Below are positions 29,093-51,775 of a stretch of DNA of 64,000 nt, piece after piece. The DNA is from a virus, in IMG/VR virus record IMGVR_UViG_3300036761_001135, positions 96,001-160,000 of that record. The stretch is one strand, 5' to 3'. The translations under genes and the position numbers were made by a program. Positions within the stretch are counted from its first letter, which is position 1, and each line of letters starts with the position of its first letter. Under the pieces are notes generated by a model. It was given only the letters and a program-made list of their open reading frames with translations, made no database searches and was not told the origin of the DNA.

Positions 29093-29923
29093 ATGGCGTT
29101 CGGGTTCATCGGCAAGCTCACTGAAGCAATCATGAACGGGCCGGAGGGCGCGGACAGCGCGAGCATGTCGATCTTGGGGATCGATTCGACTGACCCAAAG
29201 GGCAGCACGGTGATTTTGCCGGAGCGGACGTTTCAGTTCTGGCCGGAGAGCATCCAAGACAGCATCGAGATCGGGTGGCAGTTCAAGGACATTCCGGGCG
29301 GCTCGCATGCTCTGGCGCAATGGGGAAGTAACAACGGTCGCACGATCAGCTTTGAGGTACGGTTGCACCGTTTCATGAAGCCGGTGGACGACCGCACCAT
29401 CTTTGAGAAGATTATGGACCCGATTGGGCTGACGACGCCTGGCCAGCAGTATCTGAAGGACATGCGTCCGCACAACGTGGATATCGAATCTGAAATCCGC
29501 TACCTGAGAGCGTTCTGCTACCCGAGCTACGCTGTGGACAATGTGTCCGGTAGCACGGTTTCGTATTCACCTCCGGTGGCTATGCTGTGCGTGCCTGGAG
29601 TTGGTCTGAACGAGTTGGGAAGCCACACCATCATGGCCGTGATGACGGGCTGTGATGTTACCTACAATCTGTTGTTTCCAAATGGGAAGCCGCGCAACGC
29701 TACGGTAGCGCTCACGTTCAAGCAGATCGTCCAGAAGGCTGATGTTGGCGTGATGTGGAGGGGGATTGGCAAGGACGCGGCCATCAATGGGTACAAGCAC
29801 CGCATTCCAGACATCGGCTACAATGTAAATGCCTACACGGCGGGCAATGCCAAGAGTGCCAAGGAGCCCTGGACGGGCGCTGGAGGCGTGCTCAACAAGA
29901 TTGACACGAAGGGGACGACCTGA
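29093..29923 (+). CDS. Tail tube initiator-like protein (CIS tube/gp48-gp54 type)
   Basis: FQFWPESI.....W....IPGGSH...QW.....RTISF and VTY...FPNGKPR.A.V.LTF. Confidence 0.7.
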   Translation: MAFGFIGKLTEAIMNGPEGADSASMSILGIDSTDPKGSTVILPERTFQFWPESIQDSIEIGWQFKDIPGGSHALAQWGSNNGRTISFEVRLHRFMKPVDDRTIFEKIMDPIGLTTPGQQYLKDMRPHNVDIESEIRYLRAFCYPSYAVDNVSGSTVSYSPPVAMLCVPGVGLNELGSHTIMAVMTGCDVTYNLLFPNGKPRNATVALTFKQIVQKADVGVMWRGIGKDAAINGYKHRIPDIGYNVNAYTAGNAKSAKEPWTGAGGVLNKIDTKGTT

Positions 29924-36405: not shown

Positions 36406-37353
36406 ATGACCAGTTATGTGTTTTCCATTCACGACGATTTTCCGAACCACGCCTTAGCCTCCGACCGGCTCACCATCGAGATTGGGGAGAGCGCCATTGT
36501 CACCGCGCTGGACGGCATCAGCACGTCCGGGGACGTCTGCGACATCGTGTTCAAGGCGGCGCTCTCCGAGGGGGACGAGGCGCTGCTGGAGGGGCTGGTA
36601 GCCGCGCACAGCGGGTTGCCGCTGCCCCAAGTGACCGAGGTGCGCACGACGGACGGGAAGTTGTACGTGTCGCCCGACATGTGGCCGCTAGGGACGCTGA
36701 CCAACTTCACGGGAGCCGCCGACGATGTGACCAACGGCGTCGTGGGCACGGATCTGCTGGCGTTTTCCTCGACAGCCGTGGAGGACAACGTCAAGGCGTT
36801 TCAGTTCATCCTGCCCAGCTACCTGGCCGGGGGGCATCTCCAGTACCAGGGGGCGGTGTTTGGCGACTGGATCGACTTCACGAGCGTCGTACCAGCGACG
36901 GCAGGCGTGTCGAATCCGGGGGCAGGAAATTTCAATAAGGTGCAGGTGGGCGCAGGGGCAAACGTCTTTGTGCCTTCGGTGCCAGGGTCGGGAAATTGGG
37001 ATCTCGATCTTACCGCCAAGGAGAACGCCAACGTCACCTTTACCAAGGTCAGGCCGGTTCCCGCGCCCGGCATGAACGGATACTTCGACCACAGCATCGA
37101 GACTGGAGCGGTGGTTCTCAACGCGACTGGGCATGGAGGGTATCACCTGTGCGATTACGAGGTGACGCTGGCTCGGTTCATTACGCGGGTGTCGATCATG
37201 GGGAGCGACCACTTCCCGTTGACGGTGCCAGCGGTGCGCCCGATCCTGATCCTGCCGCACTGGTTGCACCGCGTGACCGTGCATAATTCGACGACCAAGA
37301 CGCTGCATCTGGTCGCCATGCTCTACCGAGGGTTGGTCAATCCGTTGAGGTGA
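36406..37353 (+). CDS. Hypothetical virion-module protein
   Basis: SD AGGAGGAG before ATG 36406. Confidence 0.6.
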   Translation: MTSYVFSIHDDFPNHALASDRLTIEIGESAIVTALDGISTSGDVCDIVFKAALSEGDEALLEGLVAAHSGLPLPQVTEVRTTDGKLYVSPDMWPLGTLTNFTGAADDVTNGVVGTDLLAFSSTAVEDNVKAFQFILPSYLAGGHLQYQGAVFGDWIDFTSVVPATAGVSNPGAGNFNKVQVGAGANVFVPSVPGSGNWDLDLTAKENANVTFTKVRPVPAPGMNGYFDHSIETGAVVLNATGHGGYHLCDYEVTLARFITRVSIMGSDHFPLTVPAVRPILILPHWLHRVTVHNSTTKTLHLVAMLYRGLVNPLR

Positions 37354-37886
37354 GCATGGACGACGTGCGCATCATTTTGTCGGCCTCCAGAACGCCTCTT
37401 GGATCATTGATCCGGTGGTGTACTAAGAGCCAGGTCTCGCACTGCATGGTGGAGTTCCCGGTCTGGGGACGGAGCATGGTAGCCGAGTCTCGGGTGGGTG
37501 GAGTGCGGATTGTGCCATCGACGAAAGCGCGGCATCATGTGGTGGTTGAATATCGCTGTTGCTTTCCCTCTCGTACCGGGCTGGCGGCGATCTCGGACGA
37601 GGCTGGGGAGAAGTACGACTACGGCGGGTTGTTCGTGATCGGTTGGGCGATCATTGCTGCGAAATGGCTGCGGATTTCTGTGAAGCGGTGGCGTTGGAAG
37701 TCGGAATCAATCAAGTGCTCGGAGCTGGTCGTGATCTTCTTGCGGGCGTCGGGTGTGAAAGGGGCGGAGTTGCTTCCCATGGAGCTGACGACCCCGGAGG
37801 ACATCCGTAGTTTTTGCCAAGAACAGAAGGCGTATTTCGAGGAGGTCATCAAGGGGAACGCTGCCAAATCCGGGCTCATACCCTGA
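37350..37886 (+). CDS. Permuted papain-like NlpC/P60 enzyme (YaeF/YiiX, peptidase C92-like)
   Basis: IRW.T.S..SH, YDY and CSELV, with His preceding Cys. Confidence 0.75.
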   Translation: MSMDDVRIILSASRTPLGSLIRWCTKSQVSHCMVEFPVWGRSMVAESRVGGVRIVPSTKARHHVVVEYRCCFPSRTGLAAISDEAGEKYDYGGLFVIGWAIIAAKWLRISVKRWRWKSESIKCSELVVIFLRASGVKGAELLPMELTTPEDIRSFCQEQKAYFEEVIKGNAAKSGLIP

Positions 37887-41723: not shown

Positions 41724-41786
41724 CGACGTGAAAAGATAGATCCGCCTTTCGTCATCGTGCTACAAAGTAAGAATTGGAGGTACGAC

Positions 41787-42533
41787 ATGCCAGGACGCGA
41801 CGTGAATCCACGATTTATGCAGCGGTGTGTGGCAGATGTGACGGCGACTGGCAAAGAGCTGGGGTCGGCCTTCGCAATCTGTACGGCGCAATCCCAGAAG
41901 TCTGGCTACACTAAGAAAGGCTCGTCCAAGATGACCGGCAAGGGTGCCGCGAGGGAACGGGCTTTCAAGAATGCGCCGGATATGGACCAGAAGAATGCAG
42001 ATTACGAGCGTGCGGTGCAGGCCGGGCGCCAGCAGGAGGAGATCAGCATGCGGAGCATTATTCGACAACTCGAAGAAGGGTCCAAAGACCGCCCGCGCCA
42101 TCGGGAGATCTTGTCCGAGATCAAGGCGATGGAGTTGGAAGTGCAACGCATGGCGGAGCGCATCTCGGAGGACGGCGACGAGAAGCTGGCCGGGTATGCC
42201 ATGGAGGCCGCTGGCATGCTGGGCAAGGCATGGGTGCGCATGGCCTTCTTCGTGAAGAGCGCCGCTGGAAAGACGATCCGATCCGAGGAGACGGATGCGG
42301 ACGATGGCGTGCTGGACGAGCGATTCGGTCGTCGTCAATCCTACAGTCGTGATCCCTACCTCACGAAGGCAAAGACGGCGGGAGTCGATGCCAAGGGCCT
42401 GGCCTACAAGAAGGGCGACGAGGTCATGATCTACAAGGACGGGGCAACATATGCCGGGGCCAACAAGGACCAGGCGTGGCGGGATTTCCAGGCGGCCAAG
42501 GATGATGAAGCATTCATGAGTGGCGGGTACTGA
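41787..42533 (+). CDS. Multi-module protein with an internal MRSIIRQLEE motif (42048)
   Basis: SD GGAGG at the start and a second SD AGGAGGAG before the in-frame ATG 42048. Confidence 0.7.
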   Translation: MPGRDVNPRFMQRCVADVTATGKELGSAFAICTAQSQKSGYTKKGSSKMTGKGAARERAFKNAPDMDQKNADYERAVQAGRQQEEISMRSIIRQLEEGSKDRPRHREILSEIKAMELEVQRMAERISEDGDEKLAGYAMEAAGMLGKAWVRMAFFVKSAAGKTIRSEETDADDGVLDERFGRRQSYSRDPYLTKAKTAGVDAKGLAYKKGDEVMIYKDGATYAGANKDQAWRDFQAAKDDEAFMSGGY

Positions 42534-42542
42534 TAGCCTGAC

Positions 42543-42558
42543 GCGAACCCAGGTTCGT
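42543..42558. repeat. 16-bp palindrome, copy 7 (GCGAACCCAGGTTCGT)
   Basis: Intergenic, just before an SD. Confidence 0.9.
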
Positions 42559-42572
42559 ATGGAGGACGGACG

Positions 42573-43337
42573 ATGCGTAGATTATTCGAGCGGTGTGAGA
42601 GGCGGATGAACGAGGAGTATGGCGGCAAGAAGACCGTTCGGGAGCCAGCGTCTCACACGGAGTATATCGAAAAGATTTTGCGGGGCATCGGCAAGAAATA
42701 TGCGACAAGTTACGCTTCGCGTACATCTGGTACCTATACGGACAATCCTCCTTACGACGCGCCAAGTACAAATATTGTGTGGAGTCTGCCAAATGGTTAC
42801 GTCAAGTTGTCGATTGAGTCAGATTTGACAGCAGGTGGAGCCCCTCTGAAGACGTTGCGGGCATTTATAGAGCCAGCTTACGCGAACCGACCGATGACGA
42901 AGGTGACAGAAATTGCCAAGGCGTTGAAGGGGGAGCTGGAGGCGGGGGATACAGACTCCAGTGCGGACGCTGAGGAACTCATAGCAACTGTGAAGAAGGC
43001 GTTTGCTGAATTCGAAAAAGAATACGCAAAACCACAGAAAGCACGCATGCCGACTCCAGTGCCTGTGTTGTCATTTAATACAGAGGAAGACATGCGATTT
43101 TGGAAGGCGGCGGTAGCCGTAGGGGGAACAGCCTCCAGTTCCAACGTGATTCTGAAGATTTCTGGTGCTGAGATTTCAATACACAATCAGGGTTACTACG
43201 GCGGATCGGTAAATATTTATACAAAAGACGAGATGCTGGACAACCATTTGGTGCGCTTGAACGTGGCAGAGCGAGCGTTCCTGCGAGTCATGCAGCAGCA
43301 TGGGTGGCTGAAATCTGGCTATGTGCGAGAGATGTGA
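42573..43337 (+). CDS. Hypothetical protein with a divergent leader (MRRLFERCERRMNEE)
   Basis: SD GGAGG. Confidence 0.7.
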   Translation: MRRLFERCERRMNEEYGGKKTVREPASHTEYIEKILRGIGKKYATSYASRTSGTYTDNPPYDAPSTNIVWSLPNGYVKLSIESDLTAGGAPLKTLRAFIEPAYANRPMTKVTEIAKALKGELEAGDTDSSADAEELIATVKKAFAEFEKEYAKPQKARMPTPVPVLSFNTEEDMRFWKAAVAVGGTASSSNVILKISGAEISIHNQGYYGGSVNIYTKDEMLDNHLVRLNVAERAFLRVMQQHGWLKSGYVREM

Positions 43338-43362
43338 CAGACGTAGTTGGTAGCGATCCGAC

Positions 43363-43378
43363 GCGAACCCAGGTTCGC
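43363..43378. repeat. 16-bp palindrome, copy 8 (GCGAACCCAGGTTCGC)
   Basis: Intergenic relative to ATG 43397. Confidence 0.9.
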
Positions 43379-43396
43379 ATATTGACGAGGCACACG

Positions 43397-44623
43397 ATGG
43401 CAGAAAAATTGGACCATGGCGTTGTCAACCTGCCGCTCGACAAGCGCGGGGGTGGGAGCCTGGACGCGCAGATCGACCGCTTCAAGGCGGGGCAGCAGCG
43501 AGATGCCAAGGCAGCGGCCAAGGACAAGCACGCGCGATCCGTGGAGGCCAAAGAGTTCGTGGACAACATGGACGACGCGCAGCTTCGGCGACTGGCGGAG
43601 AAGGCCGGGATGACGGTGGTGCAGGCGCGCAAGAAGCTGTTGAGCATGGCGCGTTTTGAACCGGACAAGGTGCTGCGGCTCAAGGCCGCGCAGCCCACGG
43701 AGGAGACGATGCGGAGCTTGATCCGGCAACTGGAAGAGGCGAAGAAAAGCAATCCGAAACATGCGCAGGATAATGAGAGTGAAAAACATCGAGAGATGGA
43801 TCCGAAGACGAAGGCGGCTTTTTCACGAGCATTTAGCGCTCTTGGAAGTAATAAGCAGCCTTCTGCTGGCGCATCGAGTGCGGATGATGACAGGAAAGCT
43901 CGCAAGGAATTGGCAGATGTGAGCGCGAAGCATCGAGAGCTAGGGGCGGGTGGTGGCCACGTCGGCACCAAGAAGATTTTCACGGGTAAAAAGTCAGCCA
44001 TGGACCAGCTCAAGGCCGGTGGTCCGGCGAGCAAGGGATCGGACGCGGGTGGCGAGGGGACGATGCCAGGGCCAGAGGGCGAGGTAGATGGCAAGTGGGT
44101 GACGGTGCGTGGAAAGCGAATGTTCTTCCCGAACGATCCCGGGGAGGGCGTGCCCGAGGGTCCGTGGGGTGGTGCGCCATGGCGTCCCGGCTGGACTGGC
44201 AAGGGTGGGGATTGGCGCAAGGGACGCGGTGTTCCTAAACAAAAGGGGCAGATGAGTCTCTTTGGCAAAAACGAGGACATGCAGTCGCTATTCCAACGCC
44301 TGGAAGAGGAAGCCGGTCGGTCTAAAGAGATCGCGGACGAGATTTTGCGGCAGTTGGGTGGGAGGCGCTTCCTGGTGATGACGGGCGCGAGGAACCTGCT
44401 GGCGTTTGACACGCTGGACGCGGAGCGGAAGTGGCCTGGCTTGCAGGTGCAGTTTCCACATGGGAACGCCAAGGTGATGCGGATCGCGTTGGCACCGGAC
44501 GACACCTATGTGATCCAGTTCATGACGCGGGCGGGGCGAATAACCAAGGAGATGGACGACATCTATTCGGAGGTGCTTCAGCGCGTGGTCTCGGACTACA
44601 CGGGCTTGGCGTTGAGCCTGTAA
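43397..44623 (+). CDS. Three-module protein with internal leaders at 43709 and 44279
   Basis: MRSLIRQLEE and MQSLFQRLEE are each preceded by an SD-like sequence. The C-terminal ILRQLGG..F..MTGA..DTY...F..TGL domain recurs in phage proteins of unknown function. Confidence 0.7.
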   Translation: MAEKLDHGVVNLPLDKRGGGSLDAQIDRFKAGQQRDAKAAAKDKHARSVEAKEFVDNMDDAQLRRLAEKAGMTVVQARKKLLSMARFEPDKVLRLKAAQPTEETMRSLIRQLEEAKKSNPKHAQDNESEKHREMDPKTKAAFSRAFSALGSNKQPSAGASSADDDRKARKELADVSAKHRELGAGGGHVGTKKIFTGKKSAMDQLKAGGPASKGSDAGGEGTMPGPEGEVDGKWVTVRGKRMFFPNDPGEGVPEGPWGGAPWRPGWTGKGGDWRKGRGVPKQKGQMSLFGKNEDMQSLFQRLEEEAGRSKEIADEILRQLGGRRFLVMTGARNLLAFDTLDAERKWPGLQVQFPHGNAKVMRIALAPDDTYVIQFMTRAGRITKEMDDIYSEVLQRVVSDYTGLALSL

Positions 44624-44632
44624 GGAGATCCC

Positions 44633-45280
44633 ATGGGACGATTGGCGATCCTATCCGAAGCGCTCATGCAGGTGGCGCGTCCGAAGACGCTTTCCGACGA
44701 AAAATCTTACAGGCAGGCATTGGCGTTATTGCGTGATGGCGTGATGCCGATGGGTGAGACTTGGGGAGACGGCCCGCCGCCGTTGTTCGTGCATCTTGGC
44801 GGTTCAGATTCCTGCGTAGTGATGCGCGAGCGTAGGGAGTCGGTGGACGATCCATTGCGGATGGGTCGTGGAACTCGATTTTGGGTACGGTTTTCTGTGA
44901 AGCCAGGGCGTAGTGGAGGTGCGGGGGTCAGCATCGATCCTGTCGCAACTGAGGCGTTCATGTCGCAAGCCATGGCGGCTCCTTGCGACGACCATCTGGC
45001 GTTAGAGCATTTGGCTGCGGCGATGCGGGTGGTGTCCGAGGAGCGCTTGGATAGCGTGCAGGGTGCCATTCGGAAGTTGTTTTGGGAGGACGGGATCTGG
45101 AGATTGGTTGGCTGGAGGAATGCGGATCAATGGGAGTTGGAGACGATTGAAGTGACTCGCGTGGATCTTGGCGAGGCGGTTGTTGGGGAAAACCGTGGAG
45201 AAGATTGGGTAGCCAAGCGGTGGGAGGCGTGGGTGCCGTTCACTTGCGATGTTGAGGCGACTCTTTGGAGGAAGAAATGA
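44633..45280 (+). CDS. Hypothetical protein
   Basis: SD AAGGAG. Confidence 0.6.
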   Translation: MGRLAILSEALMQVARPKTLSDEKSYRQALALLRDGVMPMGETWGDGPPPLFVHLGGSDSCVVMRERRESVDDPLRMGRGTRFWVRFSVKPGRSGGAGVSIDPVATEAFMSQAMAAPCDDHLALEHLAAAMRVVSEERLDSVQGAIRKLFWEDGIWRLVGWRNADQWELETIEVTRVDLGEAVVGENRGEDWVAKRWEAWVPFTCDVEATLWRKK

Positions 45281-45606
45281 AGACGATTGAACAGAAACCA
45301 AGCGGTTCAGAATACAAGTCGCGTAGTGGGTTGGACCGACTTCAGGATGGGATTGCAAAGTGGGTAGAGGGACATCCTGTTCATGTGGTGGTGAAGGCGA
45401 AAGGCATGGGAGAGGATGTCACGTTGGAGGACGATCTCTCGGCGGTAGCGGAGCAGATCGACAAGATTTTGCGTGAGAATCCCGACGCTAAGTTTTCGTT
45501 GGTTGGATTTGCAACGTATTCCACGGAGGAATCCGAGGAATCCGATGAGCAGGAAGAATCCGTCGAGCAGCCATCGATCTGGGCGGCGCGGGGCGCAGTG
45601 CAATAG
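45277..45606 (+). CDS. Hypothetical acidic protein
   Basis: SD GGAGG; ATGA overlap. Confidence 0.6.
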   Translation: MKTIEQKPSGSEYKSRSGLDRLQDGIAKWVEGHPVHVVVKAKGMGEDVTLEDDLSAVAEQIDKILRENPDAKFSLVGFATYSTEESEESDEQEESVEQPSIWAARGAVQ

Positions 45607-45640
45607 GCGAAGGATCAGGTCGCAAACCAAGGAGGCATAG

Positions 45641-46006
45641 ATGCCGCTATCCGTTTCAACGCAGGTCTCCCCGGTAGGGAGCAAACTGATCGCGCAGACA
45701 AGTGTGGGCGCGACACCGGACAACAACGTCACGGGCGCAGCGGGCACGCTGTACATGGTGGACGTGGACAACACGGCCAACACGGTGGACCCAGCGTACC
45801 TAAAGATCTACAGCGATGCGGCTCCGGTCGTGGGAACCACGCCCCCGGACCTCTTGTTTTTGGTGGGCGTGAACAAGCGGCGGACGTTCGTGGTGCCGGA
45901 GGGCTGGGCCTTCACGGCGCTGTCGTTCGCGTGCGTCACGGCGGGTGGCACAGCGGGCGTAACGGCTCCGACGAATCCTGTCGTGGTCAGGATGGTGGCG
46001 TCGTGA
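45641..46006 (+). CDS. Small beta-rich structural-type protein
   Basis: AYLKIY.....VVGTT.PD; SD AAGGAGG. Confidence 0.6.
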   Translation: MPLSVSTQVSPVGSKLIAQTSVGATPDNNVTGAAGTLYMVDVDNTANTVDPAYLKIYSDAAPVVGTTPPDLLFLVGVNKRRTFVVPEGWAFTALSFACVTAGGTAGVTAPTNPVVVRMVAS

Positions 46007-46596
46007 AGCGTTTCGACATGGATGTAGACACACATGAGGCGGTATGGACGTTGGGTGCGCGAGCAGCGCGAGAGGCGCGTGGGAAGCTCGATCTCGATGG
46101 AGCCTTCATCGCGGCGGTGCGTAAATACGGAACCAAAGTGTTCCCTGCGGCCAAGGGCCACGAGGATGACCCATGGTTCGAGGAATACTTCCAGGCGTTT
46201 CGTGATGGGGCCGAAGCGGCGGGCGTGAATGAGAGCACCATGGCGATGCGTGGTCTGATTCGTCGGTTGGAGGAATCGAGTGTAAAGGACTCCGGTTCCA
46301 GTGAGTGGGTGGCGCAGAATCTGGCGATGTTGGCAGCGAATTTCGCACAGCAGGCCACGGAGACCTATCGAGGGCGAGGGACGGCATATCCGCGTAAGTG
46401 GTATGGCAAGATGGAGAAGGTGCTAGCGGGAAATGGGTTCGGTCCGTTGAATGCCAAACAGTTGGCCCTGTTCTCTGAGGCATACGAGCGGTTCATGGCA
46501 GCGTATGGGTCAGAGGACGGGCAGGATCTCGATGCAATAGAGCGGATTACCAAGGACATCACAAATCGCGCGTTAGCGCTCGTGAGGGCATCATGA
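46003..46596 (+). CDS. Two-module protein with an internal MRGLIRRLEE motif (46246)
   Basis: GTGA overlap with the previous gene; start uncertain. Confidence 0.6.
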   Translation: MKRFDMDVDTHEAVWTLGARAAREARGKLDLDGAFIAAVRKYGTKVFPAAKGHEDDPWFEEYFQAFRDGAEAAGVNESTMAMRGLIRRLEESSVKDSGSSEWVAQNLAMLAANFAQQATETYRGRGTAYPRKWYGKMEKVLAGNGFGPLNAKQLALFSEAYERFMAAYGSEDGQDLDAIERITKDITNRALALVRAS

Positions 46597-47033
46597 CAAC
46601 AATGCGGATCTTGATCGAGCGGTTGGAGGAAGGCGCAAGCGCGTGGACGCCTGCCGAAGAGACGGCTTGCTTTAAGCTCGCCAAGCAGCAGATCGCCACG
46701 CACGGCTACCGCTGGAATCCGCGCGTAGATGTCAGCAGCAGTACCGTGGTGGTGGACGCGCTGGTGAAGGGGCTGTTCAACGGGCGCGAGGGCACGCTGG
46801 TGATCGAGGTATCGCGGGGACGCACGGGGGACGGATCGCAGATGGAGGCGGGGGCCTCGTTCCAGACGGGCAAGAAGTGGACGGTCGAGGTGGTGGCGTT
46901 CAAGCCGATCCCGCAGACGAAGGAGAAGAAATGGCCACCGGATGCCTTTGCCTTCGGGCTGGAGGCCGGGGACATGCTTGTGCAGATATACGAGATGGCA
47001 ATCCGCGAGGGGTTTTCCGAAGGGGCACCCTGA
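46593..47033 (+). CDS. Leader-bearing hypothetical protein (MRILIERLEE)
   Basis: Motif at 46602. Confidence 0.7.
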   Translation: MTTMRILIERLEEGASAWTPAEETACFKLAKQQIATHGYRWNPRVDVSSSTVVVDALVKGLFNGREGTLVIEVSRGRTGDGSQMEAGASFQTGKKWTVEVVAFKPIPQTKEKKWPPDAFAFGLEAGDMLVQIYEMAIREGFSEGAP

Positions 47034-47049
47034 TCGGTGGAGATGGGAT

Positions 47050-47065
47050 GCGAACCTGGGTTCGC
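47050..47065. repeat. 16-bp palindrome, copy 9 (GCGAACCTGGGTTCGC)
   Basis: Intergenic, abutting an SD AGGAGG. Confidence 0.9.
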
Positions 47066-47077
47066 TAGGAGGACAGG

Positions 47078-47602
47078 ATGACGAGGATGCGGTCATTGAT
47101 CGAGCGGTTGGAAGAGGCCAAGACGATGAAGGATCAGCCGGAGCCCTACAAGATTGGACAGCGGTTCCAGTTCAAGGTGGGGGACCGCGTGATCTGTAAT
47201 GGGTATCCCGGCGAAGTGGAGCGGGTTGTCAAGGAGCGTGGCAGCGTCGAGGTGCGTCTGGAGCGTGGGCATGTGGAAGTGCCAGCTTCCTATCCTGATT
47301 GCTACCCAGACAAGGATGGATCTGACCTGTCAAGGTCGGACGTGAAGAGCGTAGGGGAACCGAAGAAAGAGGACGAGCCTGCGCCGCGTGGGCGCAACCT
47401 GCCAGACTCATGGCGAATCACGCAGATGTTCCGTGTGGGCAAGGATCGTTATCAGGTGCGGACTTCCTGGAAGGGGATACCGTGGGACGAGCGTGAACAG
47501 GTAAATCTCGTGAATGACATGCGCGGCGAGCTGTGGCAGCAGCTACGCACGGGGCATTCGCGGTTGCAGTCGATGGGAGCCAACCTGTGGGTTCTGCCAT
47601 AG
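47078..47602 (+). CDS. Leader-bearing protein with an SH3/KOW-like segment
   Basis: MRSLIERLEE at 47087; FKVGDRV...G.V..V. Confidence 0.7.
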   Translation: MTRMRSLIERLEEAKTMKDQPEPYKIGQRFQFKVGDRVICNGYPGEVERVVKERGSVEVRLERGHVEVPASYPDCYPDKDGSDLSRSDVKSVGEPKKEDEPAPRGRNLPDSWRITQMFRVGKDRYQVRTSWKGIPWDEREQVNLVNDMRGELWQQLRTGHSRLQSMGANLWVLP

Positions 47603-47629
47603 CTCTCAACGCCTTGTAGGAGCATTGGG

Positions 47630-48226
47630 ATGAATGTATCGACCGACTTCGTGGGGCGACACCTGATCGTGGACGCCTCGACCTACAACCGGCGAAACCT
47701 GACGTCCACGGACACCATCTTCTCGCTGTTCGAGTCGTTGGCCCGCAACCTGGACATGACCCTGATCATCCCGCCCATCGTATGTCGGTATCCGTTTGCG
47801 AACAGCGAGCTTGAGAACTTCTGCCACAGCGTGGAGCGCGATCTTGAGAAGCAGGTGCCGCAGCCGGACCTGGCCTCTATCCGCACCATGCGGCAGTTTT
47901 TAGCGCGGCGGCAGGTGGAGGAGAGCGGTGTCACGGGAATCAGCGTTTGGGCGGAGTCGCATTGCGCGATCCATACCTGGGACGCGGACAACTATTTCGC
48001 GTTCGACGCCTTCTCGTGCAAGGACTACGCGCCCAAGGACGCCCTGCGGCTGCTGCTGAACCACTTCGACGTGGAGATGCTGAACTGCATCAACCTGATC
48101 CGGCACCAGCGGAGCGTGCCGACGCTGACGAACTTCCAGGTCAACACGAACTGGGACGTGCTGGTGGCGGGGGTCAAGATCGGTGAACTCGACACAGTGG
48201 ACTTTGACAGGATGGTGGCACAATGA
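47630..48226 (+). CDS. speD: S-adenosylmethionine decarboxylase proenzyme
   Basis: GRHLIVD, GVTG....AESH.AIHTW and FDAFSCK, including the ES pyruvoyl cleavage site. Confidence 0.88.
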   Translation: MNVSTDFVGRHLIVDASTYNRRNLTSTDTIFSLFESLARNLDMTLIIPPIVCRYPFANSELENFCHSVERDLEKQVPQPDLASIRTMRQFLARRQVEESGVTGISVWAESHCAIHTWDADNYFAFDAFSCKDYAPKDALRLLLNHFDVEMLNCINLIRHQRSVPTLTNFQVNTNWDVLVAGVKIGELDTVDFDRMVAQ

Positions 48227-48735
48227 AGACAATGAGATCGATTTTTGAGGCGGCAGAGACGAGCCAGGCAAGGCTGACGGACAAGTTGGTCGCGCAGTTC
48301 TGCGTGGGGACCAGCGGGGTTGCGGAGCGTATGGCCAGGACGGGGCAGCAGGTCGAGGGTAAGGAATTCGCGTTCCTCCAGAAGCAGAATGTTCGGAATG
48401 TATCGAAATACTGGACCGTGACCCGACTGCCAGACGGGATCGAAGTGTTGGCGAAAGGGATCGAGGTGTCGGAGAAACTGACGCGGGGGAGCGATTTGAA
48501 TCAGGGCTTACGCAACGATGACTACTGGACCGTGAAGGTGGTGTTGACCGCTGCGCGCAACGGGGTGGCGTTCAATGCGGAGTACGCAAGGGAAATGGAC
48601 GAGGGGGGGAAGAAGCATATCGAGACCCTTCCGTGGCGGAATGTGCTGAGCGCCGATTCGGGGGATCTCGCGTATTATGTCATCGACGCGATTGACTGGA
48701 TCTGGGACGAGATCCGCGACTACGTGAAGCCGTAG
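48223..48735 (+). CDS. Hypothetical protein with a shortened leader (MKTMRSIFE)
   Basis: ATGA overlap. Confidence 0.65.
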   Translation: MKTMRSIFEAAETSQARLTDKLVAQFCVGTSGVAERMARTGQQVEGKEFAFLQKQNVRNVSKYWTVTRLPDGIEVLAKGIEVSEKLTRGSDLNQGLRNDDYWTVKVVLTAARNGVAFNAEYAREMDEGGKKHIETLPWRNVLSADSGDLAYYVIDAIDWIWDEIRDYVKP

Positions 48736-48757
48736 GGTAATTTACCGTGAGGTGACC

Positions 48758-49612
48758 ATGCGATCTTTGATCCGACAGTTGGAAGAAGCGTCTGGGGCGC
48801 GCATCACAATCGACACTGGTCCATACGAGAAACAAATCCGAGAGAGATTGCAGGATCTGTTCGATTACGTCATGGACAAATACAATGACGAGCAGGCGGG
48901 GAGGCGGCAACCGCATCCTCGCATGGGTCCGACGGAGAAGCCAGACTGGGACGTTGACAAAGAGGTTGCGAGGATTATTGAGGAGTCCCGCAAGGAAATT
49001 CAGACGCTGGTGCGACAGGTGGAAGCGGCGCTCGGTCGGTTGGAGAGTTGGGACAGCGGGATGCCGATTGTGATCCGTCCGATGCCTGGCATGGACGAAG
49101 TGTTTCACGATCAGATCTCTATAGATCCAGCAAAGAACATCGCGGTGGAGATGGGGACGGGGAGGGACAAACCTGGGTTTACGTTGTTCTTCGATGGCAC
49201 CATTGACGACGTTCTGGACGCCGGAGACCGTGACTTTTTCCGCGATCCGGCGGTGGAGACGGACTACTTCAACATTGTAAGTGAAATCGAAAAGCCGGGC
49301 AGTACGAAGCGGGCTGCGGGTAAGGTTGTCACAGTTTACACGGCGCGGCCGATTCGGGACAGAGCACAATATGAGCGTGCGACGACGATTCCGCATGCGG
49401 TGTTCCTGACCAATGATCTCGATACGGCGGTAGGCTATGCGCATGACCTGAGTGGTAGTGGTGGTCGAGACATCTACCGCATTCGGATCGACGAGCGGCA
49501 TCTGCGGGTGACATTGCAGAGTGGGCGCGTTCGTGAGTACCAAGTGATTGGCACGACAGGGAAGGTGCCCGTGGTAGAGATCGAACTGGTTGATATGATT
49601 TCAGCTCGGTAA
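48758..49612 (+). CDS. Leader-bearing protein with a C-terminal ADP-ribosyltransferase-like domain
   Basis: MRSLIRQLEE; VTVYTARP..VFLT.DLDTA.GYA..IYRIRI..EY. Confidence 0.55.
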   Translation: MRSLIRQLEEASGARITIDTGPYEKQIRERLQDLFDYVMDKYNDEQAGRRQPHPRMGPTEKPDWDVDKEVARIIEESRKEIQTLVRQVEAALGRLESWDSGMPIVIRPMPGMDEVFHDQISIDPAKNIAVEMGTGRDKPGFTLFFDGTIDDVLDAGDRDFFRDPAVETDYFNIVSEIEKPGSTKRAAGKVVTVYTARPIRDRAQYERATTIPHAVFLTNDLDTAVGYAHDLSGSGGRDIYRIRIDERHLRVTLQSGRVREYQVIGTTGKVPVVEIELVDMISAR

Positions 49613-49648
49613 AATAGCGCGTACTGCTATCAAGGAGCTTTTGAACCA

Positions 49649-50020
49649 ATGAGACATCTTCTGCGACGGCTAGAAGAGGCCACGGACGCGCCTTTGGCGA
49701 CGATCACGGTGCGGGTGGTGGACGGCGCGCAGGCGCGGGCGCAGGACCAGTCGTTCGCGGTAGGCGGGCACCACGAGGTGTACCCGTGGATTCCACAGGA
49801 CGAGGTCTGGATCGAGCGTGGGTCGGATGGGCCGGACCGCACGGCGATCCTTGTCCACGAGCTGGTGGAGTGGGCGCTCATGCGGTGGGATGGGCTGGCC
49901 TACGACCGGGCGCACCAATTAGCCAACGCGGCGGAGGAGGCGGTGCGGTTGCGGGTCGGGGTGAAGGACGGGGAGACGCGATCTGCTCCGGCGGGCCTGC
50001 CGGTGGGAGAGGGCAAGTGA
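49649..50020 (+). CDS. Leader-bearing metal-binding (zincin-like) protein
   Basis: MRHLLRRLEE; EVWIE..ILVHELVE..Y..AH (HExxE variant). Confidence 0.6.
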   Translation: MRHLLRRLEEATDAPLATITVRVVDGAQARAQDQSFAVGGHHEVYPWIPQDEVWIERGSDGPDRTAILVHELVEWALMRWDGLAYDRAHQLANAAEEAVRLRVGVKDGETRSAPAGLPVGEGK

Positions 50021-51312
50021 TGCGACAGCTCATTCGACGCTTGGAAGAGGCGGCTCCGGCTCCTGGATCCAAGGAGTGGCTGGCAGGGGTCAAGAAGTGG
50101 TGGGGGCAGTGGGTTGAAGACGCTGATCGGATTTCAAAAATTCGAGATCAACAGGATCGTCGGCAGGTTCGGGCGTGGTTTGTCGATGGTGAGAAGCGTT
50201 TGAACATGCTTGTGGACGTTTTAGTACGTCGGGCGAATCTCGTAACAGCGCCAGCCCTGGCGAGTATTACGACGGGGGACGACAACCGAGAGTACAAAGA
50301 TGGAGTGGGGCGTTTGAAGGTGCCGCGCTCATATAGTGTGCTTGGATTCAAGGTTAAGCCTGAGCCAGGGGATTTAGTGCATTCGCACTTGCAGGCGGCT
50401 TTGGATTCATTGGGCAATGTGCAGGATCATGAGCAGGATCGCTGGGTAGACATGCAAAGACGCCCGGATGAGAGGGACTGGGGAACGACGGGCGATTTAG
50501 ACGAGTGGCAAGCTTACTTGGAGATTATGCCGCATAACATTTCTGGAGTTGATGCGGACGTGCAGGCGGCGATGCGTAAGTTTGCAATGCAAATGAAGTC
50601 GGAACCTAATCGGGAGAGCGTCATAAACGACGCAATTCCGTTGGATTATGATTTGGGTGGCATGAAAGTGCTTACCAACCCTGGGTCATTGAGTAGTCTG
50701 TATTCTGCTGTCACTGGGGATGAGCAGGACGATATGGAAAATGCGATGGTGGATGCTGCCACGTCGAAGGAGGTTCGTGCCGGGTTGATGCTGGCACAGA
50801 GAGCATTGGAACAGCGTGGTTTTGGTAAGGTTTGGCATGGAAAAATCTATGTGTTGCCACCTCGTCTGGCGGCTACTTTTACGAAAGCTAAGACCAGGCA
50901 GTCATTCTTGTCTGGCGGTCATTACGATCACAGCAAAGATATTGTTGTTATAAATCCAAGGCATAACTGGAAGGCAACGACCATCTCCGAGATCGTGGTA
51001 CACGAACTAGGGCATCGCTACTGGTACAGATTCATGAAGGCGGGCGCGCGGGCGCGATTTGCGGCATGGTTCGACCCACGCACCAAGGCGGAACAAGATC
51101 GAGCTGGAGCGAAGTCCGAGTATGTGCCAGCGCCGACGGCGTATGGATCAGAGAGTCCGGTCGAGGAGTTTGCAGAGACCTTCGCAGCCTACGTGCTGGG
51201 AAAATACGAGGGCATAACGCTGACGGGGCCACAGAAGGCACGGTTCGAGGCGTTGGCCCTTGGTAGGGCAGCACAGAGCGAAGACGTGGAAGAGGCGCTG
51301 GGCAAAGACTAG
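50020..51312 (+). CDS. Leader-bearing zinc metallopeptidase
   Basis: MRQLIRRLEE at ATG 50020; VHELGH and YG...P.EEFAETFA.Y. Confidence 0.75.
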   Translation: MRQLIRRLEEAAPAPGSKEWLAGVKKWWGQWVEDADRISKIRDQQDRRQVRAWFVDGEKRLNMLVDVLVRRANLVTAPALASITTGDDNREYKDGVGRLKVPRSYSVLGFKVKPEPGDLVHSHLQAALDSLGNVQDHEQDRWVDMQRRPDERDWGTTGDLDEWQAYLEIMPHNISGVDADVQAAMRKFAMQMKSEPNRESVINDAIPLDYDLGGMKVLTNPGSLSSLYSAVTGDEQDDMENAMVDAATSKEVRAGLMLAQRALEQRGFGKVWHGKIYVLPPRLAATFTKAKTRQSFLSGGHYDHSKDIVVINPRHNWKATTISEIVVHELGHRYWYRFMKAGARARFAAWFDPRTKAEQDRAGAKSEYVPAPTAYGSESPVEEFAETFAAYVLGKYEGITLTGPQKARFEALALGRAAQSEDVEEALGKD

Positions 51313-51394
51313 CCATGACGTCCTCGACGCGGCATACTGGCTGCCTGATGGTGTTGTCACCCCGCTGTGAGGCGGTCGAGCAAGGAGTATCCCC

Positions 51395-51775
51395 ATGACC
51401 GAGCAGTACAAGGCGTTGAACTATGCGGACGGCATGCGCGGGCTGCTGCGGTCCCTGGAGGAAGCCCTCACGGGGCGCTACACGTTCGTGTTCAAGCCGG
51501 TGAAGGAGCGCGTGGGGGCGACAGGCCCGGACAAGACGCTGATCGCGCACCCCACCAAGAAGGTGAGCGTAGAGATCTATTACTACGAGAAGCCGGATCG
51601 GTGGAGCGCGACGATCTTCGATGGGGATGCCGAGGAGGAGTTCACACCGGACTACATCGTGGGCGGCCAGGCGTTCGCCAAGGGGCTCACGCAGTCCGAG
51701 GCGGAAGAGGCGGCGATTGAGATCACGTTGAAGTACCTGGGGGACAAACGACGCAAGGGCTGGCGGGAGCCGTAG
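51395..51775 (+). CDS. Leader-bearing hypothetical protein (MRGLLRSLEE at 51434)
   Basis: SD AAGGAG. Confidence 0.7.
   Translation: MTEQYKALNYADGMRGLLRSLEEALTGRYTFVFKPVKERVGATGPDKTLIAHPTKKVSVEIYYYEKPDRWSATIFDGDAEEEFTPDYIVGGQAFAKGLTQSEAEEAAIEITLKYLGDKRRKGWREP

Follow-up and report, generated by a model that had tools for sequence, protein, structure and literature searches.

A shared ten-residue peptide in an array of otherwise unrelated genes

The window, a 64-kb stretch of DNA, is part of the 168.7-kb genome of an uncultured IMG/VR phage with T4-like head genes (G000). A six-frame regex scan of the window for M-R-x-[LI]-[ILF]-x-x-L-E-E recovered ten strict copies between 42048 and 51434, all on the + strand, together with two divergent copies on the same strand (Table 1), in agreement with the ten clear and two divergent copies listed in an earlier note on this DNA. 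The strict motif was found nowhere else in the window. By chance, approximately 0.0004 copies per window would be expected analytically, and 300 shuffles yielded zero occurrences. The peptide, hereafter the tag, is often preceded by an M-T-T or M-T prefix, and several tagged genes have in common an upstream palindrome and a Shine-Dalgarno sequence.

Table 1. Genes and tags of the window array (positions in the window; a slash marks the predicted cut)
Feature	Position	Strand	Tag start	Remarks
258-aa ORF	41757..42533	+		~90-aa N-domain (C-x-A-x-V-T...AFAIC), internal tag, 150-aa C-domain
Internal tag of 258-aa ORF, MRSIIRQLEE/G	42048-42077	+	42048	regex scan
254-aa ORF, MRRLFERCERRMNEE	42573..43337	+	42573 (divergent)	palindrome GCGAACC-N2-GGTTCGC just before
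439-aa ORF	43304..44623	+		two internal tags, three segments
First tag of 439-aa ORF, MRSLIRQLEE/A	43709-43738	+	43709
Second tag of 439-aa ORF, MQSLFQRLEE/E	44279-44308	+	44279
Untagged ORF 1	44633-45280	+
Untagged ORF 2	45265-45606	+
Untagged ORF 3	45641-46006	+
ORF with internal tag	45931..46596	+		likely start ATG 46019
Its tag, MRGLIRRLEE/S	46246-46275	+	46246
146-aa cargo, MTTMRILIERLEE/G	46593..47033	+	46602	tag HMM 14.6 bits
174-aa cargo, MTRMRSLIERLEE/A	47078..47602	+	47087	tag HMM 17.9 bits; palindrome and AGGAGG upstream
S-adenosylmethionine-decarboxylase-like gene, untagged	47630..48226	+		Pfam AdoMet_dc 1.1e-18
170-aa cargo, MKTMRSIFEAAE/T	48223..48735	+	48232 (divergent)	tag HMM 13.8 bits
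286-aa ORF, MRSLIRQLEE/A	48752..49612	+	48758	284 aa from tag Met
123-aa cargo, MRHLLRRLEE/A	49649..50020	+	49649	HELVE inside; stop overlaps next start (ATGA)
430-aa cargo, MRQLIRRLEE/A	50020..51312	+	50020	A-P-A-P-G-S linker after tag; zincin-like
126-aa cargo, MRGLLRSLEE/A	51395..51775	+	51434	tag from residue 14

Four of the tag copies (42048, 43709, 44279 and 46246) are internal to longer ORFs, the upstream parts of which are coding in the same frame. GC3 of the part of the 258-aa ORF upstream of its tag was 0.70 in the coding frame versus 0.59 and 0.50 in the other frames, and the three successive segments of the 439-aa ORF had in-frame values of 0.85, 0.61 and 0.82. The three consecutive untagged ORFs matched no Pfam family above the cut-off; the third has counterparts in the relatives G001 and G002 (ORFs L003 and L004, with near-identical or similar N-termini), and the segment 45550-46006 showed 92% DNA identity to G001.

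The peptide is constrained and related phages differ by whole cassettes

Codon counts confirmed the earlier proposal that the constraint acts on the protein rather than on the DNA: the invariant Leu8 is encoded by four codons, Arg2 by five, and Glu by GAA or GAG, and because codons vary at the conserved positions, the constraint must lie at the peptide level. Comparison with G001, which is 97% identical to the window phage, revealed that whole cassettes differ between the two. The 254-aa ORF is absent from G001, indicating insertion or deletion of one cassette. Similarity stops precisely where the first tag of the 439-aa ORF ends (43739), and the ORF at 45931 has only the 35-bp tag (46240-46274) in common with G001, both flanking domains being different; further breaks at or within tags were observed at 49664 and 50032. 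The 51395 cargo has the same N-terminus in G001, which carries an additional paralogue. Furthermore, the G002 orthologue of the 258-aa ORF (41% identity) retains the N-domain and the internal tag and bears a further tag at its own N-terminus.

These breaks, together with the common upstream palindrome and Shine-Dalgarno sequence, would fit a DNA-level feature, for instance a junction for recombination or a cassette for translation start, spreading along with the genes and encoding a functionless peptide. We regard this as very unlikely, given that the amino acids are fixed although synonymous sites change freely, and that the peptide pattern is kept in relatives of very different base composition with only 48-66% protein identity. 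Recombination at the tags more plausibly follows from the conserved coding sequence.

Two tagged arrays lie within the structural gene block

Genome-wide, all tag HMM matches above ~7 bits fell into two + strand arrays, both in the structural gene block, with no match in the rest of the 168.7-kb genome. The earlier statement that the motif is absent outside the window array thus held for the 64-kb window but failed for the genome, in which array 1 occupies positions 77,919-90,463, upstream of the window, with ~20 tagged genes and more degenerate tags, many lacking a clear L-E-E end. Together, array 1 and the window array (array 2) comprise ~31 tagged ORFs, ~13% of the genome, with cargos of 55-511 aa.

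Array 1 lies directly 3′ of a tail tube gene of the T4 gp19 type and ends before a T4_baseplate-family gene and a gene for a 1291-aa tape-measure-like protein. Its placement directly after the gp19-type gene recurs in G002, G003, G004, G007 and G008, and relatives with 60-76% capsid-protein identity have, immediately following the tail tube gene, successive genes with MRxLIExL-type N-termini. Being located between tail tube and baseplate-hub/tape-measure-like genes and not beside head genes, array 1 does not point to the capsid by position alone. In contractile injection systems, payload arrays typically adjoin the tube and sheath genes, and this neighborhood would suit a tail-loading signal that docks cargo to the tube lumen, to the tape-measure complex or to a tail chaperone, in the way that N-terminal signals serve payloads of extracellular contractile injection systems. 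However, the lumen of a phage tail tube is already filled by the tape measure protein, and array 2 does not adjoin tube genes. Moreover, the tag can be aligned to the head-targeting sequence of T4 and has the gp21 cut motif at its end, and homologous cargo carries T4-like head tags in other Gp23-type phages, as detailed below; tail loading consequently appears quite improbable to us.

Two tagged cargos have unrelated predicted folds

All-vs-all BLASTP of the 31 tagged ORFs detected a single paralogous pair, in array 1 (37% identity); all other matches covered only a tag-length stretch or a short motif. The AF2 model of the 48752 cargo (pLDDT 89; tag helix at residues 2-12, pLDDT 56) comprised, in its mature part, a helical N-part and a C-terminal ADP-ribosyltransferase (ART)-fold domain at residues 187-284. 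In VIA-align searches the leading Z scores were those of TreTu (8.7), diphtheria toxin (8.3) and KptA (7.8), nearly all of the top 50 matches being of the ART fold, and Foldseek retrieved Tpt1 at 3.5e-3. The 50020 cargo (pLDDT 85; tag residues 1-10, pLDDT 39) contains invariant HExxH and EEFAE motifs, with H328, E329, H332, E382 and E386 invariant; its Foldseek matches to zincin proteases were weak (best 1.2e-2), and Pfam Peptidase_Mx (0.0035) fell below the cut-off. From these models, the two cargos are predicted to fold as unrelated enzyme-like domains, ADP-ribosyltransferase-like and zincin-like, respectively. In both, the tag formed a separate low-confidence helix detached from the domain.

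The BLASTP comparison and the two different folds uphold the earlier view that the domains downstream of the tag are unrelated. They also bear on whether the N-terminus might be the last remnant of one old paralogous family with diverged C-terminal parts and not a portable module. The array 1 pair and further paralogues in G001 speak for such descent, which we nevertheless consider highly unlikely: cargo lengths span 55-511 aa, the two modelled folds are unrelated, tags also stand between two unrelated domains, and the ART family bears different tags, or none, in other lineages.

The phage encodes a T4-type head module and a gp21-type protease

Pfam searches identified T4-type head genes (Portal_T4, 3.8e-59; Gp23, 1.2e-68) and a T4 gp19 tube gene, and the order portal, two small proteins, protease-scaffold and capsid equals that of T4 genes 20-67-68-21-22-23. 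The gp21/U9-type prohead protease that the earlier note had expected was found (Peptidase_S77, 1.3e-13, 51 bits versus a cut-off of 27); its gene is fused to a gp22-like scaffold and interrupted by an intein, which is lacking from an orthologue. By BLASTP, the protease can be aligned to T4 gp21, with a common PQLLIET N-terminus and conserved His and Ser motifs (GELDHP and GVSSRGFGS; GELNHP and GVSSRGLGS in T4).

Cutting after Glu is common to the gp21-family proteases of T4, phiKZ and SPN3US (PMC5694885). As hydrophobic-x-Glu is short and frequent by chance, we give weight to its occurrence in head proteins only at positions conserved in an alignment. Sites of this type, predicted earlier for further substrates, were present in the capsid protein as K-S-[LF]-x-E/[DE]-T (residues 64-66; 12 relatives, middle residue variable) and in the protease-scaffold as L5-I6-E7 (invariant in 10 orthologues). 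For comparison, T4 gp23 loses 65 residues, and LIE-9 of T4 gp21 has been flagged as a likely autocleavage site (PMC9026906).

Residue-by-residue alignment of the tag with the T4 capsid targeting sequence

In T4, a capsid targeting sequence (CTS) is carried by the internal proteins IPII and IPIII (MKTYQEFIAE in both), by IPI and by Alt, and is removed by gp21 (PMC9026906, PMC5694885). The analogy with this peptide drawn in the earlier note was borne out by the T4 record: MKTYQEFIAE/A and MRSLIERLEE/A align residue for residue, with Met1, a basic residue 2, a hydrophobic residue 4, an aliphatic residue 8, Glu10 and a small residue 11 in both. CTS processing is governed by residues 8 and 10 (PMC9026906). 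The hydrophobic register differs, comprising positions 1, 4, 7 and 8 in T4 and 1, 4, 5 and 8 here; position 7, one of two T4 targeting positions, is aromatic in T4 and polar in our tag.

The 48752 cargo has 31 metagenomic homologues with lineage-specific tags. Those of other Gp23-type phages include the bridging tags MKNFLEWLFE/S, MKNFYQWLKE/S and MRNFIEWLSE/S, and one such contig encodes Gp23 and a neighboring gene with the N-terminus MRDFIEWM. In addition, the tagless homologues P0010 and P0015 start at the mature domain, exactly at the predicted cut.

Short amphipathic N-terminal helices have many docking roles, and the tag could instead act in the infected cell as a docking or regulatory helix, for instance one grasped by a common chaperone or partner, or one serving as a degron, on proteins that are not packaged. 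In favor of this, a crotonase/ClpP-fold protein (PHROG 1128, 4.9e-16) is encoded ~4 kb upstream of array 2; against it, that protein has no Pfam peptidase match. This explanation, which we judge unlikely, leaves unaccounted for the strict Glu and small-residue end, the T4 CTS register, the T4-like tags on homologous cargo and the same-strand placement of both arrays in the structural gene block.

Collectively, the T4-type head genes, the protease, the CTS register and the homologous cargo support the earlier reading of a portable capsid-loading and protease-cleavage tag, and we consider it likely that M-R-x-L-I-x-x-L-E-E is this lineage's version of the T4 CTS, a signal that loads cargo into the head and is then cut off.

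A model for loading and release, compared with known systems

Core binding, cleavage, packaging, ejection and any anti-host role are steps that we infer. The tag would form a short amphipathic helix with a hydrophobic face at positions 1, 4, 5 and 8, kept off the cargo by a flexible linker, and may bind the prohead core, composed of the fused gp21-protease/gp22-like scaffold and two small core proteins. Tagged proteins would be enclosed as the gp23-type shell forms, and the gp21-type serine protease would cut on the C-terminal side of the second Glu, with Leu at P3, Glu at P1 and mostly Ala, Gly or Ser at P1′, freeing cargo inside the head to exit with the DNA at infection. Internal tags would create cleavable multi-domain precursors, so that one tag could load two cargo domains, and the conserved tag-coding DNA coincides with the cassette-swap junctions between related phages.

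As in T4, a 10-residue N-terminal peptide is found on unrelated proteins in a phage with gp20, gp21 and gp23 homologues in T4 order, and the ART-fold 48752 cargo parallels Alt, a head-packaged, gp21-trimmed ADP-ribosyltransferase. Unlike in T4, the tag is often M-T-T-prefixed and in some multi-domain ORFs internal, the arrays lie within a tail/structural block, and the protease is scaffold-fused and intein-interrupted. We know of no demonstration that the T4 CTS functions at an internal position. What is new relative to T4 is the scale (the ~31 tagged ORFs in one genome compare with three Ips and Alt), the in-frame multi-domain proteins with internal tags, and the mosaic breakpoints at tags.

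Ip1-3 of T-even phages each act against different GmrSD type IV restriction enzymes by inhibiting them, "at least 10" Ips have been reported across related phages, and ip loci are thought to be anti-defense hotspots (PMC12373910). The polymorphic ip loci likewise hold unrelated cargos with only the leader in common, and their gene content varies between close relatives, whereas the per-genome scale is ~10 times greater here and among the cargos are large enzyme-like proteins reaching 511 aa. In phiKZ, 201phi2-1 and SPN3US, many head-internal proteins are cut after Glu by a diverged homologue of gp21, and targeting of cargo to the prohead is attributed to their propeptides (PMC5694885). Those propeptides mostly exceed 100 residues, have no single short common tag and have the motif A/S/G-x-E, whereas the present phage is not jumbo and uses a compact, repeated 10-residue tag.

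Encapsulin cargo-loading and microcompartment encapsulation peptides also place unrelated proteins in a shell by means of a short amphipathic helix on a flexible linker, and encapsulin shells have the HK97 fold, as in phage capsids. No protease removes these peptides, and their cargo is not delivered to another cell; the comparison is an analogy only, with no homology implied.

One tagged protein, encoded at genome position 79467, consists of the tag, ~55 acidic residues, the site DDMLE/G and a Lys/Ala-rich basic tail; it resembles a DNA-associated internal protein bearing a neutralizing propeptide.

Two arrays of tagged genes in a distant T4-superfamily phage

The earlier note had described a shared leader on an array within the 64-kb window, and a six-frame scan of the window with the pattern M-[RQ]-x-[LI]-[ILF]-x-x-L-E-E showed it to be real, recovering ten strict and two divergent copies of the tag and none elsewhere in the window. 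Chance would supply approximately 0.0004 strict matches per window, and shuffled sequence yielded 0 in 300 shuffles. L8-E9-E10 was invariant in the ten strict copies, residue 11 was Ala, Gly or Ser in nine of them, position 4 was Leu or Ile in every copy and position 7 was Gln, Arg or Ser; the hydrophobic residues (positions 1, 4, 5 and 8) occupy one helix face. Leu8 was encoded by CTC, CTG, TTG or CTA and Arg2 by five codons across copies. Because the codons vary while the residues stay fixed, selection acts on the peptide, as the note had argued; such free synonymous variation contradicts a DNA-level element, which we consider a very improbable source of the repeats.

A profile built from the tag copies was run in six frames over the whole genome (an IMG/VR record of 168,688 bp, estimated to be 91% complete, with the window at bases 96,001-160,000). 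Matches above about 7 bits occurred in only two places, the reported block (array 2) and a second block upstream of the window (array 1), where approximately 20 consecutive ORFs begin with more degenerate tags, including MTTMRTLIGRLEE, MATMRTLFEAVEE, MTMRTLIEQIE and MTTMNDLFESMETA. The claim that the motif is confined to the reported block thus held for the window and failed for the genome. Together, the two arrays comprise approximately 31 tagged ORFs in approximately 22.5 kb, roughly 13% of the genome. All-versus-all BLASTP of these ORFs found one paralogous pair, the remaining matches covering no more than the tag or a single short motif, and the tagged proteins (cargos) also differ by fold, in agreement with the note's view that the downstream domains are unrelated.

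The short motif, K-W/H-x-T-V-R-G-x-x-x-F-F-P-x-D, is common to two otherwise unrelated tagged ORFs (BLASTP, 8.5e-05). Untagged genes also occur within the arrays: an S-adenosylmethionine-decarboxylase-like gene (Pfam AdoMet_dc, 1.1e-18) in the middle of array 2, and an Amidase_2 gene (N-acetylmuramoyl-L-alanine amidase, 1e-08) in array 1, the latter followed by a T4_baseplate-family gene (1.9e-14) and then by a 1291-aa tape-measure-like gene. Adjacency to head genes was discarded as an argument, since both arrays sit among the tail and late structural genes.

Coordinates of the tag copies and associated features, in window or genome numbering
Feature	Coordinates	Strand	Basis
Strict tag copies (n = 10)	window 42048, 43709, 44279, 46246, 46602, 47087, 48758, 49649, 50020, 51434	+	six-frame scan
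Divergent tag copies (n = 2)	window 42573, 48232	+	six-frame scan
Reported block (array 2)	window 42048-51434	+	six-frame scan
Second block (array 1)	genome 77,919-90,463	+	profile scan
Tag starts with extra residues	window 46593, 47078, 48223; genome 79467, 80274, 80592, 81859, 82544, 83168, 83666		
ORFs with shared short motif	window 43304-44623 (residues about 263-285); genome 82544-82711		BLASTP
gp21-type prohead protease gene with intein-like insert	genome 60337-63132 (locus L005:4337-7132)		Peptidase_S77 match
Untagged AdoMet_dc gene	window 47630-48226		Pfam
Untagged Amidase_2 gene	genome 88215-88913 (locus L006:12215-12913)		
Crotonase/ClpP-fold protein	window 37350-37886		
ORF with weak CIS_tube match	window 29093-29923		
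Palindrome GCGAACC-N2-GGTTCGC	window 42550-42565, 47050-47065; genome about 80250		

The phage encodes a T4-type head module and a gp21 homologue

Beyond the window, the structural genes include those for a T4-type portal (Pfam Portal_T4, 3.8e-59), a major capsid protein of the same type (Gp23, 1.2e-68) and a tail tube protein of the T4 gp19 type. A prohead protease of the T4 gp21 type, which the note had expected in the genome, is likewise present: a 931-aa protein outside the window matches Peptidase_S77 (PF03420) with 51.3 bits against a cut-off of 27, and matches T4 gp21 (from NC_000866) by BLASTP at 2e-08 and 9e-05. The two proteins have the N-terminus PQLLIET in common, and the motifs GELDHP (GELNHP in T4) and GVSSRGFGS (GVSSRGLGS in T4) are kept. 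Directly after GELDHP lies an intein-like insert of approximately 390 residues with a LAGLIDADG-like segment, and the protease domain is followed, in the same gene, by a long helical scaffold-like extension; most IMG/VR relatives carry an insert-free protease gene of 533-548 aa. Portal, two small proteins, protease-scaffold and capsid protein follow one another as do T4 genes 20-67-68-21-22-23; the small proteins and the scaffold extension were assigned from position and composition only. Identity of the capsid protein to its counterparts in cultured T4-like phages is only approximately 27%. The phage belongs to the T4 superfamily, of which it is a distant and uncultured member, and its clade is represented in IMG/VR by 35 loci.

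Candidate cleavage sites are conserved in this module. The capsid protein carries K-S-[LF]-x-E followed by [DE]-T, with [LF]-x-E at residues 64-66, in 12 of the 12 relatives compared, the middle residue being variable; in T4, a 65-residue propeptide is removed from gp23 (PMC9026906). Residues L5-I6-E7 of the protease are invariant in its orthologues and shared with T4, in which LIE-9 of gp21 has been noted as a probable autocleavage site (PMC9026906). Moreover, cutting after Glu is common to the gp21-family proteases of T4, phiKZ and SPN3US (PMC5694885). A crotonase/ClpP-fold protein encoded in the window was rejected as the relevant protease, as it has no Pfam peptidase match and a true gp21 homologue exists.

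The portal match of G002 (L008), a more distant relative, is split by approximately 1.1 kb, and the tail tube ORF of the clade relative G008 is 527 aa long with its match in two pieces; both may represent further inteins. In the present phage, a tube paralogue (26% identity) lies directly upstream of the gp19-type tube gene, and a 276-aa ORF within the window weakly matches CIS_tube, a contractile-injection-system tube protein family (1.2e-05, just below the cut-off).

The tag resembles the T4 capsid targeting sequence

The T4 internal proteins (Ips) IPII and IPIII start MKTYQEFIAE/A (a slash marks the predicted cut). The ten residues of this capsid targeting sequence (CTS) suffice for head incorporation, residues 4 and 7 weighing most in targeting and residues 8 and 10 in gp21 cleavage (PMC9026906). 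The tag has the same length, Met1, a basic residue 2, a hydrophobic residue 4, an aliphatic residue 8, Glu10 and a small residue 11, whereas its position 7 is polar and its hydrophobic residues lie at 5 and 8 instead. On sequence evidence, the tag closes with an aliphatic-x-Glu context of the kind that gp21 cleaves, after which the mature N-terminus would begin, and similar starts are found in the T4 core proteins gp67 (MEGLIEAI), gp22 (MLKEQLIAE/A) and gp24 (MAKINELLRE/S). Co-folding of the tag (window 47078-47200, 41 aa) with an intein-less protease-scaffold orthologue scored 0.00, controls not having been run, and gave no answer either way.

The strongest evidence for a putative T4-type tag comes from the family of the cargo at window 48752-49612, followed across lineages through 31 metagenomic homologues. 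Close homologues start MRQLLRRLEE/G or MRELLQRLEE/A, and distant ones start MKNFLEWLFE/S, MKNFYQWLKE/S, MRNFLEWLFE/G, MIDFIEWLNE/N or MIMRNFIEWLSE/S. The distant tags fit the T4 pattern (residues 4 and 7 aromatic, residue 8 aliphatic, Glu10 and a small residue 11) and share M-R-x-hydrophobic-I-E-x-L-x-E with the tag described here; tags such as MRNFIEWLSE bridge the two hydrophobic registers, with residues in each. One distant homologue lies on a 170-kb contig with a Gp23-family capsid gene, and its neighbouring gene starts MRDFIEWM. Furthermore, two tagless homologues start exactly at the start of the mature domain. With differing tags or none on the same cargo, the tag is thus a separable module, bounded by the predicted cut, whose form follows the phage lineage rather than the cargo. 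This change of tag on a single cargo family, together with the different folds of the cargos, contradicts descent of the tagged genes from one diverged paralogous family, an explanation that we find scarcely credible.

Collectively, a head-loading tag of the T4 type, removed by the protease, is the best-supported reading. The T4-type head genes, the gp21 homologue, the conserved candidate cut sites and the T4-like tags on homologous cargo support the note's proposal of a portable, CTS-like signal, and we infer that the tagged proteins are packaged, cleaved and ejected. A signal for loading into the tail, comparable to the payload signals of extracellular contractile injection systems, would suit the position of array 1, which adjoins the tube gene, but is distinctly improbable: the tag resembles the T4 head signal and ends in a predicted cut site, and homologous cargo bears T4-like tags; a cytoplasmic docking helix or degron, which would leave these same observations unexplained, is also unlikely. 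The mechanism suggested by the head-loading reading is of a known kind, the T4 CTS with gp21; what is new, compared with T4, is its expanded scale (approximately 31 genes) and its organisation (two arrays, internal tags) in a distant uncultured lineage.

Predicted folds of the cargos

An AlphaFold2 model based on the 48752 family alignment had a mean pLDDT of 89, with the tag forming a helix at residues 2-12 (pLDDT 56). VIA-align of residues 187-284 gave Z scores of 8.7 for TreTu (rmsd 2.5, 89 aligned), 8.3 for diphtheria toxin and 7.8 for KptA, almost all of the top 50 being ADP-ribosyltransferase (ART)-fold proteins, and Foldseek returned Tpt1 at 3.5e-3 with probabilities of 0.8-1.0 for Tpt1 and PARPs. 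In the model, the C-terminal domain adopts an ART beta-sandwich fold. When the catalytic motif R-S-E or H-Y-E was sought in the family alignment, R197 was invariant within Y-T-A-R-P and Y261-Q262 was conserved; an invariant catalytic Glu was absent. Among 50,697 records of cultured phages, tblastn with window 48752-49612 as the query detected nothing at E 1e-3, and no Pfam family was found for the cargo. T4 Alt is a head-packaged, gp21-trimmed ADP-ribosyltransferase (PMC9026906), to which the 48752 cargo would be analogous in function and fold only, having no detectable sequence similarity to Alt/ModA/ModB-type proteins of cultured phages. Weak PDB matches to histone H2A (E 0.13-0.63) were dropped in favour of the confident ART-fold model over the same residues.

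The model of the cargo at window 50020-51312 had a pLDDT of 85, its tag (residues 1-10, pLDDT 39) being followed by an A-P-A-P-G-S linker. H328, E329, H332, E382 and E386 are invariant (HExxH and EEFAE), and weak fold matches (best E 1.2e-2, TM about 0.2), with a Pfam match below cut-off, suggest a zincin-like protein. The tagged protein at genome 79467 comprises the tag, approximately 55 acidic residues, DDMLE/G and a Lys/Ala-rich basic tail, a layout that would be expected for an internal protein that associates with DNA and carries a neutralising propeptide. PDB sequence searches with four cargos returned nothing significant, and Pfam and PHROG searches of the cargos assigned almost no families.

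Internal tags and turnover of the arrays

Four tag copies are internal to longer ORFs rather than N-terminal, and in the segments upstream of them GC3 peaks in the same frame (0.70-0.85). For the first of these ORFs, G002 (48% identity) keeps the N-domain, internal tag and C-domain and has an extra tag at its own N-terminus. Under the cleavage model, such ORFs would be precursors cut into separate cargos, which suggests loading of several domains by one signal. Internal initiation may also occur, given that Shine-Dalgarno-like sequences precede two internal tags.

Compared with G001, a 97%-identical relative, the array is a mosaic, with 92-98% identity across the blocks in common. G001 lacks the gene at 42573-43337 and has extra tagged genes and a second zincin-like paralogue. 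Blocks of similarity begin or stop at tags (43739, 46240-46274, 49664 and 50032), and the ORF bearing the 46246 tag shares only the 35-bp tag with G001, its domains differing on both sides. This turnover resembles the polymorphism of T-even ip loci, whose Ips have nothing in common but the packaging leader and act as inhibitors of different restriction enzymes (PMC12373910).

We tentatively consider it possible, rather than probable, that the tag combines three roles in one module, loading proteins into the head, linking domains in a way that the protease can cut and providing a junction for recombination, and so serves an injected and swappable arsenal of approximately 30 proteins. If so, unrelated cargo domains could be fused, split and swapped at no cost, and an arsenal including an ART-fold protein, a zincin-like protein and a histone-like DNA binder, encoded by approximately 13% of the genome, would turn over between near-identical phages. 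T4 proteins of the same class include restriction inhibitors and a modifier of host RNA polymerase. Provided that the tag works as inferred, this phage and its clade offer a catalogue of approximately 30 proteins probably delivered into the host with the DNA, and the tag a straightforward sequence criterion by which proteins of this sort could be recognised in uncultured T4-superfamily phages. The T4 CTS is already used to package foreign proteins in phage heads, a toolkit that could be widened by a short tag of another lineage that a protease removes.

In four clade relatives with 60-76% capsid-protein identity (G003, G004, G007 and G008), runs of small genes lie directly after the tail tube gene, with N-termini such as MRKLIEKL, MRDLLERL, MRQLIERL, MRLLIERL, MRDLIEKI and MHEIIEKLE. 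When IMG/VR was searched at the DNA level for the exact 13-mer M-T-x-M-R-x-L-I-x-x-L-E-E, the near-identical relative alone was recovered, and a looser pattern gave few matches in more distant relatives because the tag is degenerate there (MRxLIExL type, judged from ORF starts).

In front of many tags stand two or three additional residues, M-T-T, M-T-R, M-K-T or M-A-T (ATG-ACN-ACN-ATG), giving a double-Met start, which takes the form M-T-M or M-I-M in distant homologues. Finally, several tagged genes have, immediately before the Shine-Dalgarno sequence, a palindrome that could act as an operator or a terminator or mark the boundary of a cassette.
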